Part shown: positions 3,001 to 9,000 of the stretch, piece after piece
Position numbering within the stretch: the first letter of the stretch is position 1
How the letters are laid out: each line of letters starts with the position of its first letter
Source: Deinococcota bacterium
Lineage (GTDB): Bacteria; Deinococcota; Deinococci; Deinococcales; Thermaceae
Direction: 5' to 3'
DNA: 64,000 nt
Assembly (NCBI GenBank): GCA_041695225.1
Contig: JBGFRI010000003.1
Location: 64,001-128,000, forward strand
Position numbers: made by a program

Positions 3001-6000
3001 CTCTCCCCCTTGTTGCTGCCCTGGCTACTACCAGCCAGCGCCTTTGTGCGTCTGACCGATGTGGTGGAGGGTCTGCCGCCCTACGAAGAGCAAGTGCAAC
3101 TGCTCCAGATGGACGGATTCCACCAGGGGCAGATAAAGCACTTCTACGACGACCTCAAAGAAGCGGTAAACGCAGCCCTCGTCCGGGGCTCCAGGCGGCT
3201 GCTGGGAGCCTATCTGCAAGCTGGCCTATCGGTACCAGATGCACCCTGGGAACCCACCGAGGTAGTCGAGCCCGATACCAAGAGGGTAGTGGCCTCCTAC
3301 GACCCTCTGCCAGGCGAGTACCAGCACGCCAAGGAGCGCGAGCTTCTGGATCTGGTTTGCCGTGAGCAAGCAGGGGGCCGCCGGGTGCTGGTCTACGTCC
3401 AGAACACCCGGGTGCGTGACCAGCTCAGCCGCCTGAAGGCCCAGCTCGAGAACCAGGGCCTCCGGGTAGCGGTACTGCGGGCCGAGACCGTACCCGCAGC
3501 CAGGCGGGAGGCCTGGCTGGCCCAACAGGTGAACCAGGGAGTGGACGTGGTGCTCGCCCACCCCCGCCTGGTGCAGACCGGCCTGGATCTGATCGATTTC
3601 CCCACCCTGGTCTTTTACCAGGTGGAGTATTCGGTCTACACCCTGCGCCAGGCTGCCCGTCGCAGCTGGCGGATCGGGCAGACCCAGCCGGTGCGGGTAG
3701 TCTTCATGGGCTACCAGCAGACCCTGCAGGCAGGGGCTTACAGCCTGATCGCCACCAAGGCCCGCAGTAGTCTAGCCCTCGAGGGGGAGCTGGTAGAGGG
3801 TGGCCTGGTAGCCGCGGCGGAGGAGGATCCCCTGCTCCTGCTGGCCCGCAGTCTGATCAGTCAGACTGATCTGGACTGGCGGGGCAGCCGCCTGGGACTC
3901 GAGAAACTACCAGACCGACAGGTAGAGCTGCCTCTGCTTGCCACCCCCCGCTGGGTCGGTGCAGGCAAAAGCCGGGTACTCCTGCCGGCCGGGCAGCCGG
4001 TCCTGTTTTCCTGATCAAGCAGCCACAGCAGAAAAACCGGGGCTTCGGCCCCGGTCTTGTTGTTAATAGCGCTACAGGAATATATACTACATCGTGATAG
4101 GAGGAGAAGAATATGCGAATAGCCGCCAAAGCAAAAGCTGGTTTCTACCCCACCCCCCGGAGGGTGGTTGAACTCATCCAGTCCCGCATTGCAGGACTGG
4201 GAGATCTGCTGGATCCCTGCGCCGGAGAGGGGGATGCCATCAAGGCCCTCTCCATCAGCACCCAGTGTAGGGCACTGGCCATTGAGTTATCCCAAACCCG
4301 GGCTGCCAGGTGCCGCGAGAAGGGGCTCCAGACCCAGCAGGGAGATTCCCTGCAATACGAAGGAGGCGGCTTCGGCTTGCTCTACCTCAACCCCCCCTAC
4401 GACGATGGGGAAGGTGAGCGACTTGAGTACACCTTCCTCAAACACTGGACGCCCGCCCTGCGACCCAGTGGATTGCTGGTGTACTTGATCCCGGAACGGA
4501 TTCTGCCCCGGGTGGCCGACTTCCTGACTGCCTGGTACGGCGACCTCAGGGCAGTACGTTTTCCTGAGCCGGAGTACCAGGCCTTTAAGCAGATAGTCGT
4601 CTTCGGGAAAAAGCGGGAGGCGGTAGCCGCACCGGAAAGCCTCCAGGTTCAAGGGGTACTCGAGACCGGTAAAGACTGGAGCTACTGGTTTCCCGGAGGC
4701 ACTGGCTGGCTGATGCAGAAAACCGTCCCGGTGGAAGAAGCCCTGGCCCTAGCCAGCAAAAGCCCGCTCTGGGAGCCTTACCAAAGCCGCGCTCTCGAGG
4801 CGTTCCGGCCCCTCCTGCCTCTAAAACAGGCCCACCTGGCCCTACTAATCGCAGGTGGCATCATGGACAACCAGGTCGTGAACCTGGACGGAATGCCTCA
4901 TCTCATCAAAGGCCAGGTTCAAAAGACCGAAACCTTTGTGGAGGAAGAGGAAGAGGACGGCGGGACCAAAACGGTAGCCCGCGAGCGGTTTGAGGTCCAG
5001 GTAATAGCCCTGAACATGGCTACTGCTGAGATCCTGGAGGTGTCCTGATGAAGGTCACGATCAACGGGATCCCGGTAGTGCTGGATCGGCTGGCGGTGCA
5101 TCACGCCACTGGCATCCTGGTCTCAGTCGTGGGCGCTCGTGAGGCGGTTTATGCTGCCTACGGCGCCTACCAGCGTGCGCAAGGAATTACCTTGCCTCTT
5201 GACGGCCGGGACATCCGTGTAAACAGCCCCAGCCCGGTCAAAGGCCGCTTCACTACCCTGGCCCGAGGAGTAGTTCACGGTCTGTTCGTGAGGGAGAACC
5301 TTTCCGAATACTATCTGGTTCTCGAGCCCAACAACCCCGACCTGGCGGCAGAAGCCCGCTGGCTCTCCAACCAGATCGGACTACCCATTCTGCCTCACTG
5401 GGTACCAGAAGTGCGCAAGCTGCTGCCAAACCAGGCTTTAACCAGCTGGCGCATGGAGGTGTACTACCTCCCACGCTTCCGAGCCGAGGAAGTCAAGAAG
5501 GCAGTACAGAGCGCAGTAAGGAAGGGCCACCTGACGCTCCCACAGTAGCCACAGCCCCAAAAAGAAGGAGTCCCTTTCGGGGACTCCTTCCTGCTGAGAT
5601 GGCGGCTAATCCTGCTATCAAGCCGCCACTGCAGCCAGCCGCTCCTCCGGCCTATGTGCTTCAACTGCCCGGCAGACTGCCTCGAGGAACAGCCGGGGCA
5701 GGCGCGAGTAGTGCGCCAGCAGCCGCTGGCCCCGACCGGGCTGCTCCAGCCGACTGCTCACCAAAAGATCAAACTCCAGCCAGGCCCGCTCACGCACCAG
5801 CTTCTCGCTGGCTGCAAGCTGGTTGATCCAGTCCTGCGAGAGGGGCTCCTTCAAGCACCGCCTGGCGATTCCCACGGCCTCGGCCCGCTGCCACAGAACC
5901 TGGGGATCGCGCAGCGGCAGTCCCTCGGCCAGGTCGAGTTGCAGCAGGTCGGACAGACGGTACTCGATTCTGGGGTACTGGCCATTCTTTTGCAGGGCCC

Positions 6001-9000
6001 CATCCCGGACCAGATCCAGCAGGGCAGTGAGAATCGTGGCCTCAGCCAGCGATCCTCTGAGTCCCCAGTTATCGTGGGCGATCTTGTAGACTTGATCAAG
6101 GGTTTTCGGGCCGTCAGCAATAAGTTGTAGCAGCTGTTCACGCATGGTCATACCTCTGTATCTCCTCCTGCACCCTGCGGTGCAGGGCTAGATGTGCTGG
6201 TGTACTGGTTGGAGCTATCTTGTAGACAAACTCCCGCCGGGCCTGGTGGTAAGCAGTCTCGCCCCAGAAGTTGCGGCCCATCTGGGCCAGCTCCTCAATC
6301 CGGTAACGCTCAAGGCTCTTGCGCTCTCGGTCTGCCTTTAGGCCCTGCTGCTTCAAGGCTAGAGTAGCTGAGAGGATGTCCGGGTGCAGGGCCTGCCATA
6401 GCTGTTCCTGTACCTTCTCGGCAAAAGCCCCCCTGTCTCCAGGCAGCAAAACATCTACCAGGCCAATCCGCAGCGCTTCTTCATCACCCAGGGGCAGCAA
6501 GCCGTTGGTTAATTGCTGGGCAGTGCGCTGGCCAACCCGGCGCGGCAACAGATAAGTCCAGTATTCCGAGCCATACAGGCCCCCCATCCCCTTGTAGTGG
6601 GGATTCAGCACCACACCCCGGCGCAGCAGCACCCGGTCAGCGGCCAGGGCCAGGATCACTCCACCCGCACCGGCATTTCCTCGCACCGCCGAGAAGACCA
6701 GCTGCTGCTCCATTTCCAGCAGCTCCAGCACCACGTCGTTGATAGCATTGATGCTCTCCCAGCTCTCCAGGGCTGGATCTTTCGCCGCCTCGATGGCCCC
6801 CAGATGGATGCCGTTGCAAAAAGCGTCATGGCCGCCCCACAGCACCAGGGCTGCGATGGGCCGCTGTTTAGCCGTCCGTATCGCTTCCCGCAGACTCCGA
6901 GCCTGCTCAGTGTTGAAAGCCCCGCCCTGGAACTCCCAGGCCAGGTGCCCTACCAGCTGATGGTAGGGGGCACAGTTCACTGTCTCTTCCCAGTAGCGGA
7001 TCTCCTGGTAGCCAGCAGCGCCCCACCGCTCCGGTATCCCGGCCAGGCGGTCCCCCAGCACCTGAGTAGCCGGCAGTTTAATACCGCCTTTGGTCTTCAG
7101 ATGGCTGATCCATACTGCGCCATCCAGTGTCCGCCGCAGGATCGCGCCGTTCTGGTGAGCCAGCACCTCACCCGGCCTACCCTGGCCTACCGGCTCGTAG
7201 TGCACCTGGGCCCCGTAGAGATAGCAGGTAAGGTCCAGCACCTGATCCAGTACACCAGGGGAGCCATCTGCCGCCTGGATGCGCCGGATAACCTCCTGGG
7301 TTGGCATTGTAGCCCAGTCAATCGCCCGGTCTTTCTGCTTGATCACCGGGTGCAGCACCCCCCAGGCCCCCTCGAGGTCCTTCAAAGGAGTAGGCTGCCA
7401 CTCACCCTGCCGCCAGGCTGGAAAGTGGTGAAGGGCCTCGAGGACACACTCCACCGCCGCCTCTACTACCTCATTCTGGTAGATCGAGCTTTTAGGAGCC
7501 TGGCGCATGGGAAACTCCCGCCAGGCCCAGACATCCCCGGCATCCATCTCGGCGTTGGCCTGCAACAGGGTCACTCCCCAGCGGGGCTGGCCCTGCATGA
7601 TGGCGTAATCCAGGCTGTACGCGCCTCGATCTCCGCGCACCCCAGGATGCACAATCAGGGTTGGATAGCGGCTCCAGATGCTCTCCGGCACTGCCGCTTT
7701 GAGAAATGGCGCAAGGATCAGATCGGGCTGGAAGAGTGCCACCGCCTCCTCCATCAGCACATCACTGATAGCAAATTCAACACTCACGGTATGCCCCAGC
7801 CGGGTTAGCTCGATCTGGAAGCGCTGGCTCATCGAATTGTGGGATGTAGTCAGGAACAGAACACGCATCTGTAAACCTCAATCGGCAAAACACTCTGAAG
7901 GTGGTGTGACAGCATCTCTACCCCAGGATCGCCACCCCCAGAACAACCAGCACAAGACCGGCCACGAACAACACTGGCCCAAGCCAGCGTGTCACCAGTG
8001 CTTCCAGCCGGGAACCACCCTGCACCGACGGCTGAAAAAATCCCGGTAGGGCGATAATCGCTGTCAACACCATGAACAACCCCACTACGATCAAGGGCCA
8101 GGCCAGCAACGTAAGCATCTCTCACTCTCCTATCAACAGAGTATATATCAGCAAAACTGGAGAGCACTACCAGCGTCTCATAAACAAAAAAGAGCAGGAC
8201 ATCCTGCTCTTTTTCTCAGCGTCTCTTGCTATACCCGAGCCAGCCGGTGAGCCATAATCTCACCATGATGGCGGTCCTGCGCAATTGTCGCACCAATTGC
8301 TTCCAGGCTACCAGTCAGTAGGACATGGGTGTTGACCTGCTTCACCGCTGGCTCCAGGACAGCCAGACGGTACTGGTCATCCCCGCTATCCCTTTCCAGG
8401 ATAGCCAGTGGCACACCACAAACTATGCCCAGGTAGACATATACCCGGGTTTTAGCCAGGCTGGAAAGGACCCCGAGATGACCACCCTGCCCGAACAGCT
8501 CAATGTCCTCAAGCGTCAGGCTGGAGAGAGCTTCCCAGGCGGTAGCGCCAGTCCGGTACAGAAGCCACAGCGGAATATCCCTCGCATTAGGCTCAGTGTA
8601 CCTCACTGCAATTATCTGGGAGTTTGGCGCAACTACCTCCTGAGCCTGCTTGTCCACAGTGCTCGTTAGCAATTTTCCGCTAACAGCTCTCAGCCAGTAC
8701 AGGCAGGTTGGATCATCAGGACGAAGGTGGCCCGCACGCAGCAACTTTTTCAGCCGCGGCAAGTGGGCCACCGCCTCCTGGACTTCCGGGGCCTACCAGA
8801 ATAGGTTCAGAACCGGCGTAAAAGAGCCCCCAACGGCCGTCATCCCGCATCCAGGAAGCAACATTATCCCAGCTTGGAGGAACCTCAGGCCACTCCTTCC
8901 AGTGTACCAGACGCCAGTTGTCCAGCTGCCTGACCTCCTCCAGGGTATGGTCATCCAGCCAGGCCTGCATAGCCGGGGAAAGCTCTTGGTCCTCAGTGTG

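Follow-up and report, generated by a model that had tools for sequence, protein, structure and literature searches.

What purpose does HypX, an enzyme that makes CO for hydrogenase assembly, serve when its gene travels on conjugative elements? The presence of HypX is commonly taken to mark a bacterium as an aerobic hydrogen oxidiser. To our knowledge, hydrogenase maturation is the sole function ever shown for this protein, and we know of no other enzyme that makes CO for NiFe hydrogenases in air. In a preliminary description of a Meiothermus genome (G000), two HypX genes on conjugative elements were interpreted as an O2-tolerant route to the CO ligand on which aerobic H2 oxidation by the host would depend. 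The window analysed here is a 64,000-nucleotide stretch of one of these elements (C8:64001-128000), and coordinates refer to it unless a contig is named. The reading preferred here, to which we assign a probability of about 0.5 on the strength of sequence comparison, is that a CO-forming cassette follows one family of Meiothermus conjugative elements and that its role is probably not hydrogenase maturation.

HypX and its gene cassette

Judged by its domains and alignments, the product of 6138-7868 (minus strand) is a genuine full-length HypX. The 576-aa protein comprises an N-terminal formyl-THF transferase-like and a C-terminal crotonase-like domain, with Pfam matches to Formyl_trans_C (4.8e-12) and ECH_1 (3.9e-15) and a Formyl_trans_N score of 24.9 bits, slightly below the 26.1 cut-off; this is the architecture expected of HypX/HoxX, namely a formyltransferase-like domain plus an ECH domain in about 560-600 aa. 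Residues 1-567 align with residues 21-579 of Aquifex HypX (6J0P chain A; phmmer, E 4e-143), and identity amounts to 47.2% with HypX of C. necator pHG1 and 45.7% with that of Bradyrhizobium, the latter in line with the roughly 46% given earlier.

According to the Aquifex study, His74, Asp80 and Asp109 act in formyl transfer, and Tyr416 and Glu426 in decarbonylation (PMC6802093). The residues named there are kept as H74, D80, D109, Y425 and E435 in both G000 copies, on contigs C8 and C12, and in the HypX of a second Thermaceae genome, G023; the five catalytic positions are invariant across a 22-sequence HypX alignment. Among the CoA-tethering positions (Aquifex numbering), Q15 is kept, R131 is replaced by Q, N306 by G, R542 by K and S194/Q195 by G/S. 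That study describes mutants of diphosphate contacts alone as tolerated, while adding S194, Q195 and N306 mutations lowers CoA affinity (PMC6802093). The Meiothermus proteins form a separate long branch in the HypX tree and share nine substitutions peculiar to the clade at positions that hardly vary elsewhere; two conserved cysteines are lost among these, and N315G falls at the position of Aquifex N306, which contacts the CoA 3'-phosphate. Following the established chemistry of the family, the N-domain would pass the formyl group of N10-formyl-tetrahydrofolate to bound CoA, and the C-domain would decarbonylate formyl-CoA and release CO.

By its gene arrangement, the region 5618-8118 is a self-contained cassette of about 2.5 kb with three genes, for a putative 66-aa membrane peptide, for HypX and for an orphan of 177 aa. 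The first gene (7918-8118, minus strand) specifies the putative small membrane protein, with two hydrophobic segments (residues 1-32 and 40-66, where hydropathy windows exceed 1.6). The start of the orphan gene (5618-6151, minus strand) and the end of HypX have 14 nt in common, and the two genes are therefore considered to be coupled in translation. The orphan had no match in Pfam, NCBIfam, PHROG or PADLOC, and its relatives were confined to three clusters among 5.8 billion proteins and two representatives among 1.84 billion; its AF2 model is all-helical, with a mean pLDDT of 55.9. In the preferred reading, it would act as a lineage-specific adaptor or regulator.

Predicted hairpin terminators bound the C8 cassette on both sides. 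A 12-bp stem (8185-8214, minus strand; -16.6 kcal/mol) followed by TTTTTT ends the preceding gene and would insulate the cassette on its upstream side, although the consensus scan did not flag it. The predicted cassette terminator (5559-5588, minus strand), 30 nt past the orphan stop, likewise has a 12-bp stem (-21.4 kcal/mol), followed by TTCTTTTT. Within 8116-8150 (minus strand), direct reading of the sequence reveals a TG-extended -10-like element (8140-8150) and, at 8116-8132, a GGAG ribosome-binding site together with the start codon (ATG) of the 66-aa ORF; the promoter is regarded as putative because the consensus scan flagged none there.

Conjugative elements carrying the cassette

The first and last 100 bases of C8 (150,324 bp) recur at opposite contig ends, and the contig is considered circular because these ends overlap. 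Its replication, partition and transfer genes identify C8 as a conjugative plasmid. The maintenance core (24193-28209) consists of ParB (24193-25122, minus strand; Pfam ParB_N/HTH_ParB), ParA (25112-25966, minus strand; AAA_31/CbiA) and a Rep3 initiator (26767-28209, plus strand; Rep3_N/Rep3_C), and the transfer system includes a type IV coupling protein (58743-60992, minus strand; T4SS-DNA_transf, TraG-D_C, TrwB_AAD_bind). A VirB4-like ATPase is also encoded, and a relaxase is suggested solely by homology to a weak Replic_Relax match. No hyp gene other than HypX was found on the plasmid. Neighbouring genes of the elements include those for thymidylate kinase, a YfbR-like nucleotidase, the ribonucleotide reductase (RNR) small subunit and DNA methylases.

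The second of exactly two HypX copies in the genome lies at C12:67342-69057 and is 91% identical to the first. On C12, positions 3-374 of the 499 of comM (C12:23991-25079) abut a large serine recombinase (C12:24997-26517), and the transfer genes comprise a VirB4-like ATPase, a type IV coupling protein (T4CP) and an SLT transglycosylase, with a weak relaxase-family match. No right end was located for the element, and comM 3' fragments were found on contigs other than C12. With an integrase at a disrupted target and transfer genes, the C12 element is, by its gene content, a comM-inserted integrative conjugative element (ICE). The preliminary description thus stands in placing the only two copies on a conjugative plasmid and an ICE, and in giving both the same orphan flanks (177-aa ORF 94%, 66-aa ORF 76% identical). 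The in-frame TGA that it mentioned near the end of the C12 copy proved to be that copy's own stop codon: its reading frame runs unbroken for 571 aa and ends in a C-terminal tail that differs from that of the C8 copy. As for the supposed shared backbone, the three genes are indeed common to both elements, but they form a discrete high-identity block that is differently placed in each.

This block of 2,494 nt (5641-8132) is 88.5% identical to C12:67077-69564 (blastn) and extends from the ribosome-binding site of the 66-aa ORF to 23 nt short of the orphan stop. Neither flank shows similarity between C8 and C12, and of the 29 protein pairs that the two elements share, 25 reach only 26-81% identity. 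The dN/dS between C8 and C12 is 0.13 for HypX, 0.057 for the 177-aa orphan and 0.33 for the 66-aa ORF, with dS of 0.4-0.5 for the co-resident HypX and orphan copies; against G023, dN/dS is 0.24-0.26. These ratios indicate that both copies of the cassette are under purifying selection.

A third Meiothermus element, in G023, carries HypX followed, with a 4-nt overlap, by a 45% homologue of the 177-aa orphan, together with a T4CP, ParA/ParB and a DUF6094 methylase; the 66-aa ORF was not found upstream of HypX there. HypX and the partner ORFs are intact on all three elements, and the stop/start coupling is conserved. The element family was found four times in 68 Thermaceae genomes, three times with the cassette, a sample of three or four elements from related hosts; the hydrogenase-positive genome G026 has a related element without HypX.

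Host hydrogenases and distribution of HypX

G000 encodes a membrane-bound group-1 and a Hox-type NiFe hydrogenase as well as hypA/B/C/F. The C15 locus has the order hupS-hupL-cytb-protease-hypA-hypB-hypF-hypC, and the C26 locus contains HoxEFUYH, in agreement with the two hydrogenase loci without hypX described before. The earlier account did not extend to hypD and hypE; neither a six-frame search with Pfam/NCBIfam nor tblastn with congeneric HypD/HypE found them in the 92.3%-complete assembly, leaving HypC and HypF as the members of the HypCDEF machinery seen. Without HypD and HypE, no NiFe cofactor is made. In one relative, hypD/hypE lie on an island of their own, 40 kb away from the hydrogenase locus common to both, and unassembled DNA could hold hypD/hypE in G000 (92% complete) or a hydrogenase in G023 (84%). 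At the two positions that are mutated in its best PDB match, the G000 hydrogenase small subunit lacks the extra cysteines, and it is therefore not of the 6-Cys O2-tolerant type; such extra cysteines are linked to O2 tolerance.

As previously reported, HypX occurs in one of 67 other Thermaceae genomes (G023, 67% identity); neither a NiFe large subunit nor HypD was found in that 84%-complete genome. The 14 other Thermaceae with a NiFe large subunit all possess HypD and uniformly lack HypX (14/14 and 0/14), and Thermaceae hydrogenases therefore mature without it. Hydrogenases are present in 12 of 25 other Meiothermus genomes. When flanking sequence (up to 8 kb) was searched by tblastn with HupS/L and HypA/B/C/D/E/F, hyp or hydrogenase neighbours were detected at none of the three Meiothermus HypX loci, versus 35 of 40 loci elsewhere. 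Among the five loci outside Deinococcota without such neighbours, four belong to genomes that have HypD, and hyp genes occur at the locus or in the genome for 39 of the 40 cases. Within Deinococcota, HypX is present in 5 of 364 genomes, all with the catalytic residues kept, and HypD is missing from four of the five; two of these host genomes are 97% (in 2 contigs) and 100% complete, and in neither did a hydrogenase exceed the cut-off. The missing hypD/hypE, the HypX-free hydrogenase-bearing relatives, the lack of hyp neighbours and the gene content of G023 count against the proposed dependence of aerobic H2 oxidation on a mobile HypX. The earlier interpretation is thus supported in part: the genuine HypX, the intact copies and their place on conjugative elements stand, but the dependence of aerobic H2 oxidation on them finds no support.

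Comparison with known HypX systems

The Meiothermus protein shares with HypX/HoxX of Aquifex aeolicus (6J0P) and Cupriavidus necator both domains and a full-length alignment at 45-47% identity, and with the Aquifex enzyme the His-Asp-Asp triad, the Tyr/Glu pair and the CoA contact Q15. It differs from the Aquifex enzyme by R131Q, N306G (Aquifex numbering) and eight more clade-specific changes. Unlike in those two organisms, the Meiothermus loci have no hyp or hydrogenase gene nearby, HypD/HypE were not found in the assembly, and HypX comes with a coupled, lineage-restricted orphan of 177 aa and a putative 66-aa membrane ORF.

Plasmid-borne HypX is already known from hydrogenase regulons such as those of pHG1 of C. 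necator H16 and the symbiotic plasmids of Rhizobium/Bradyrhizobium, some of them conjugative; PLSDB contains 50 plasmid records with HypX, of which 12 are typed conjugative. Those plasmids measure 374 kb to 5.7 Mb among the 40 matches listed of 50, in contrast to the 150-kb plasmid and the ICE described here, and at the rhizobial loci L054 and L064 hypX lies among hypA/B/D/E/F, whereas the Meiothermus plasmid and ICE carry HypX alone. Mycetohabitans megaplasmids also have a solitary HypX, which is 41-42% identical and bears the annotation 'hydrogenase maturation protein'; on the megaplasmid, the 9 kb to its left and right contain no hyp gene. These replicons are non-mobilisable, 0.7-0.86 Mb in size and without the partner orphan.

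Two other Deinococcota of one genus, G263 and G265, resemble Meiothermus in having a HypX predicted from its residues to be catalytically intact and no hyp neighbours, and G265 has neither HypD nor a hydrogenase in its genome. Their HypX falls in another clade; its gene is on the chromosome, has no 177-aa partner and is divergently oriented beside a stand-alone MHYT membrane protein instead of a small 2-TM ORF. Glycine-cleavage genes lie 2 kb from HypX in G265, an adjacency not conserved in G263.

Possible roles of the cassette

It is possible, although we consider it doubtful, that HypX is accessory cargo that provides HypCD with its CO ligand in oxic conditions and improves H2 oxidation in air for hydrogenase-bearing Meiothermus, the sampled hosts being incomplete or transient. 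Two studies give hydrogenase maturation as the known role of HypX (PMC6802093, PMC12134894), the catalytic residues are intact, and the host has both hydrogenase types and four hyp genes; about half of the genus has hydrogenases, and the PLSDB records provide precedent for HypX on plasmids. This explanation is difficult to reconcile with the failure to find hypD/hypE in the assembly, with the absence of HypX from all hydrogenase-positive relatives and from the G026 element, and with its presence in G023 without hydrogenase or HypD. Nor does it fit Meiothermus loci that lack hyp neighbours, a coupled orphan that canonical hyp clusters do not have, or a small subunit that is not of the O2-tolerant type.

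A HypX scaffold with shifted chemistry, delivering formyl-CoA to another acceptor or draining formyl-THF and so altering the folate pool, would agree with the nine clade-specific substitutions (N315G and the two lost cysteines among them), the nucleotide and DNA-metabolism genes neighbouring in the elements and the glycine-cleavage genes near the G265 HypX. We regard it as very unlikely: the candidate decarbonylation residues Y425 and E435 and the N-domain triad are intact, the gcv adjacency does not extend to G263, and HypX is tied to the nucleotide genes solely by the shared element. Most improbable is a neutral hitch-hiker, a hydrogenase-regulon fragment that an ancestral element took up and that has since been retained as functionless DNA; the cassette is solitary and its hosts lack a complete Hyp set, but the low dN/dS between the copies (0.13 and 0.057, at dS of 0.4-0.5) and against G023 (0.24-0.26), the intact ORFs on three elements and the conserved stop/start coupling all speak against it.

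In the preferred reading of an element-associated, CO-forming cassette, the distribution suggests that CO, or a drain on formyl-THF, would not be mainly for NiFe-cofactor assembly in the Meiothermus lineage and may serve another purpose of the element or host. Intact HypX is under purifying selection on mobile elements, and the CO-receiving machinery was not found in the host assemblies; elsewhere in Deinococcota, a like pattern is seen in essentially complete HypX genomes without a hydrogenase over the cut-off. The presence of HypX in genome surveys should not count as evidence of aerobic H2 metabolism, and bacteria may use enzymatically made CO outside hydrogenase assembly.

A candidate CO target is the copper-type MHYT gas sensor, which is core to Meiothermus. 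Since HypX lies beside MHYT in hydrogenase-free genomes and Meiothermus hosts encode MHYT, the elements could use CO to steer their hosts. It is an unlikely proposal that Deinococcota HypX serves gas signalling as a dedicated synthase of endogenous CO and that the element-borne cassette steers host behaviour, such as surface motility or cell contact, to the benefit of the element. In CoxC, the MHYT domain is reportedly CO-responsive and copper-dependent. The link to MHYT comes from adjacency in two Deinococcota genomes of one genus (G263, G265), and MHYT occurs in nearly all Meiothermus irrespective of HypX presence. In G000, the MHYT protein is encoded inside a Che-type chemosensory operon.

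Identity and layout of the cassette

The 576-aa protein encoded on the minus strand (window 6138-7868) is marked by its sequence as a genuine HypX, an identification already made in the preliminary description and borne out here by its domains (Formyl_trans_C and ECH_1), its catalytic residues and a full-length alignment in which residues 1-567 match the Aquifex aeolicus HypX structure 6J0P (E 4e-143). Identity to HypX on Bradyrhizobium and C. necator plasmids amounts to 45.7-47.2%. The Aquifex study (PMC6802093) assigns formyl transfer to the triad His74, Asp80 and Asp109, and decarbonylation to Tyr416/Glu426. 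In the window protein, H74, D80 and D109 occupy positions identical to the triad, Y425/E435 sit in an aligned NPHYK...GSEYW motif, and all five residues are invariant across a 22-sequence alignment.

HypX is accompanied by two further minus-strand genes: a 66-aa ORF (window 7918-8118) and a 177-aa partner (window 5618-6151). The HypX stop and the partner start overlap by 14 nt. These coordinates stand as first described; the offset of 32000 assigned to the window is wrong, since it corresponds to positions 64001-128000 of contig C8 in the source genome, G000. A homology block of 2,494 nt (window 8132 down to 5641; 88.5% identity), shared by C8 and contig C12, spans all three genes, running from the ribosome-binding site of the 66-aa ORF to 23 nt before the partner stop, and beyond both edges the two contigs have no alignable sequence. 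The two elements have 29 protein pairs in common. Identity is 26-81% in 25 of these, and the only four that exceed this range are HypX (91%), the partner (94%) and a further two at 95% and 100%. The C8 cassette comes after a helicase, a DUF6094 methylase and a 166-aa gene, the C12 homologues of which lie 9 kb from the cassette. The three genes form a discrete cassette with different neighbours on each contig, not ordinary backbone, and the earlier wording of a "shared backbone" is corrected accordingly.

Strong hairpin and T-run terminators bracket the C8 cassette at window 8185-8214 (-16.6 kcal/mol) and 5559-5588 (-21.4 kcal/mol), and the cassette is preceded by a TG-extended -10-like element. 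A simple scan of the region flagged neither the terminators nor this element, and the promoter therefore counts as inferred. Comparison of the C8 and C12 copies gives dN/dS values of 0.057 (partner), 0.13 (HypX) and 0.33 (66-aa ORF), at dS 0.40-0.49, which indicate purifying selection on both copies.

Carrier elements

The 100 bases at each end of C8 (150,324 bp) are found again at the other end, which makes the contig circular. Among its genes are those for a Rep3 initiator, ParA/ParB, a type IV coupling protein (T4CP), a type ISP restriction enzyme, a VirB4-like ATPase, DnaB, SSB, ArdC, type I-E Cas proteins and a secretin/PilB-type apparatus; hypX is the sole hyp gene on it, and hydrogenase genes are absent. 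C8 is evidently a circular conjugative plasmid.

The second HypX gene (C12:67342-69057) is 91% identical to the C8 copy and intact at 571 aa, which rules out a pseudogene. The in-frame TGA previously attributed to it is the stop codon of that ORF, because the last residues of the two copies differ. It belongs to an integrated element that starts at a large serine recombinase (C12:24997-26517) abutting a comM gene truncated at position 374/499, and that carries a VirB4-like ATPase, a T4CP, an SLT transglycosylase and a weak relaxase-family match. The core of the preliminary description, a real and mobile HypX in two copies on a plasmid and an integrated conjugative element, thus holds once its TGA, backbone wording and coordinate offset are set aside.

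The right end of the C12 element was not located, and several separate fragments of the 3' part of comM, from model position 347 on, occur on other G000 contigs (C25:5695-6138, C25:10540-10686, C6:7182-7460 and C4:26-304), which suggests either more than one comM insertion or tandem elements. The high identity of the C8 and C12 cassettes may reflect recent exchange between co-resident elements. A separate sign of recent exchange between plasmid and integrated element is a 1,288-nt block of 95% identity containing the gene for a 250-aa tyrosine recombinase (window 62671-63423 and C12:116302-117054), the two proteins being 100% identical.

Several other features of the plasmid were recorded. Its type I-E Cascade consists of Cse1, Cas7 (CT1975-like) and Cas5 (C8:60244-63666) with Cse2 (C8:1989-2729), and cas3, cas1 and cas2 are absent among the Pfam matches of C8. 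Besides the VirB4/T4CP genes, C8:14728-25718 encodes a type IV pilus or T2SS-like apparatus comprising a secretin, a PilC-like T2SSF protein and two PilB/PilT-type ATPases. The type ISP restriction-modification enzyme (window 50910-55718; 1,602 aa) joins Mrr-like nuclease, helicase, methylase and specificity domains, and a DdrB-like protein of the Deinococcus single-strand annealing/binding family is encoded near ParB-like genes (window 19625-20020).

Element family and phylogeny

A third carrier is contig C9 of another Thermaceae genome, G023, whose record is also that of a Meiothermus sp. MAG contig (L026). It encodes a 66% identical HypX followed, with a 4-nt overlap, by a 45% identical partner homologue, lacks the 66-aa ORF, and also bears ParA, ParB, a T4CP and a DUF6094 methylase. 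Traced by this methylase as a marker through 68 Thermaceae genomes, the element family occurs at four places (twice in G000, once each in G023 and G026); HypX is present on three of the four members, and the cassette therefore follows the element family. Further contexts of partner or cassette were absent from two metagenome scans, IMG/VR scans with partner and with HypX gave no match, and in a phage collection the sole match, partial and at 39%, fell on an 8-kb record that carries no annotation. All 24 listed sequencing runs are DNA and labelled groundwater metagenome. Upstream of the G023 HypX and divergent from it lies a gene for a Crp/Fnr-family regulator (cNMP_binding + HTH_Crp_2; L026:7238-7900), to which a cNMP-binding protein encoded at C8:36182-36760 is 30% identical.

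In a quick ML tree of 53 rows with SH-aLRT supports, the C8, C12 and G023-type HypX, together with one unplaced metagenome protein, form their own branch (support 100, length 0.45), separate both from the remaining Deinococcota sequences and from the groups formed by Aquificota and proteobacteria. The four Meiothermus HypX have nine common substitutions at sites that are the same in 16 or all of the 17 other sequences (I60V, C70T, P83A, S84Y, F311W, N315G, C323A, V340A and A415L); a long-branch row, P0010, which has eight of the nine, was left out of both groups. By the 6J0P alignment N315 corresponds to Aquifex N306, a contact of the CoA 3'-phosphate according to PMC6802093.

Host hydrogenases and distribution of HypX

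Two hydrogenases are encoded in G000. Contig C15 carries a membrane-bound group-1-type enzyme with a Tat small subunit, a large subunit (671 bits), cytochrome b and an endopeptidase, followed by hypA, a 74-aa ORF, hypB, hypF and hypC, while contig C26 encodes HoxE-F-U-Y-H. HypD has no Pfam match in the assembly, HypE only sub-threshold AIR-synthase-type matches, and tblastn with congener HypD/HypE returned nothing below E 0.37. The relative G030 shares the C15 gene order after hypC and has hypD/hypE at a distance of 40 kb, next to another hydrogenase, one not present in G000; no local deletion is therefore visible at C15, and loss of hypD/hypE at that locus is ruled out. Around the G030-type hypD/hypE island G000 synteny is broken at a repeat, and the assembly is 92.3% complete; absence of hypD/hypE from G000 is likely but unproven. 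The group-1 small subunit (C15:108821-110074; L008:4822-6075) reads C-T-G-N-S where its best PDB relatives have C-T-G-C-S, so that one proximal-cluster motif cysteine is asparagine, as in all three Meiothermus small-subunit homologues looked at.

Among 67 other Thermaceae genomes, 14 encode a NiFe large subunit and 15 HypD; every one of the 14 hydrogenase-positive genomes has HypD and none has HypX. The preliminary interpretation is thus borne out only in part: that aerobic H2 oxidation in this Meiothermus depends on HypX is not supported, and several results, the failure to find hypD/hypE in G000 among them, count against it. The only other Thermaceae host, G023 (84% complete), has neither large subunit nor HypD. 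At a cut-off of E<=1e-40, HypX is present in four of 363 other Deinococcota genomes (G265, G100, G263 and G023), with the five catalytic residues kept in each. HypD and a large subunit over cut-off are missing from G265 (97% complete, 2 contigs) and G100 (100% complete), and both are present in G263. As a control, hyp or hydrogenase genes occur in the fetched flanks of 35 of 40 HypX loci from other phyla, and four of the remaining five genomes have HypD elsewhere, giving hyp coupling in 39/40 loci or genomes outside Deinococcota versus 1/5 HypX genomes inside. This distribution argues against a hydrogenase role of HypX here. A similarly solitary HypX (41-42% identity) occurs on Mycetohabitans megaplasmids (L081, NZ_CP062179.1 693924-713606), with no hyp gene within 9 kb and with adjoining acyl-carrier and acyl-CoA dehydrogenase genes.

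Possible roles of the cassette

All readings rest on genome comparison. The preferred one, with a probability of about 0.5, is that a CO-forming HypX cassette belongs to the Meiothermus conjugative-element family and probably acts outside NiFe maturation. A portable oxic CO supply for host hydrogenases, of which G000 has two and against which the distribution speaks, is less likely. Shifted chemistry or a folate-pool role of HypX appears improbable; the clade signature includes N315G, and the catalytic residues are all intact. Least probable of all is neutral cargo, a reading that sits poorly with purifying selection on both copies. Literature searches retrieved no paper on HypX in Meiothermus and only unrelated work for HypX with Deinococcus; for HypX, hydrogenase, plasmid and horizontal combined, the matches listed included C. 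necator energy metabolism.

The partner has no Pfam, NCBIfam, PHROG or PADLOC match and no invariant Cys or His. Its relatives amount to three clusters among 5.8 billion proteins, and a profile search of 1.84 billion yielded two representatives. An AF2 prediction of its structure is all-helical, and its mean pLDDT of 55.9 makes it too poor for a fold search; the ESM Atlas gave no usable match for the fold and a PDB profile search chance matches only (E 0.89). Across these collections, the partner is a true orphan.

A hint at a possible further function of HypX comes from its neighbourhood in G265 (L085:9185-12247) and G263 (L087:7937-11031), where the gene for a HypX that is catalytically intact by sequence is adjacent to, and divergent from, that for a stand-alone MHYT membrane protein of 256 aa (Pfam E 1e-46), taken here to be a putative CO/gas sensor. 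The MHYT domain of CoxC has recently been shown to respond to CO in a copper-dependent manner (PMC11347149). The 66-aa ORF of the cassette is not a single MHYT repeat, having no Pfam match and no histidine. Stand-alone MHYT proteins occur in G000 and 23 of 25 other Meiothermus genomes, and in none of 42 genomes of other Thermaceae genera. Within the genus their presence shows no correlation with that of HypX, and the adjacency is therefore a lead, not evidence. In G265 only, gcvP-gcvH-nudix-gcvT follow the MHYT gene. The G000 protein (251 aa, 35% identical to those of G263 and G265) is encoded inside a Che-type operon (C49:21233-30053) with a CheY response regulator, CheW, two MCPs and a CheA-CheW-REC hybrid.
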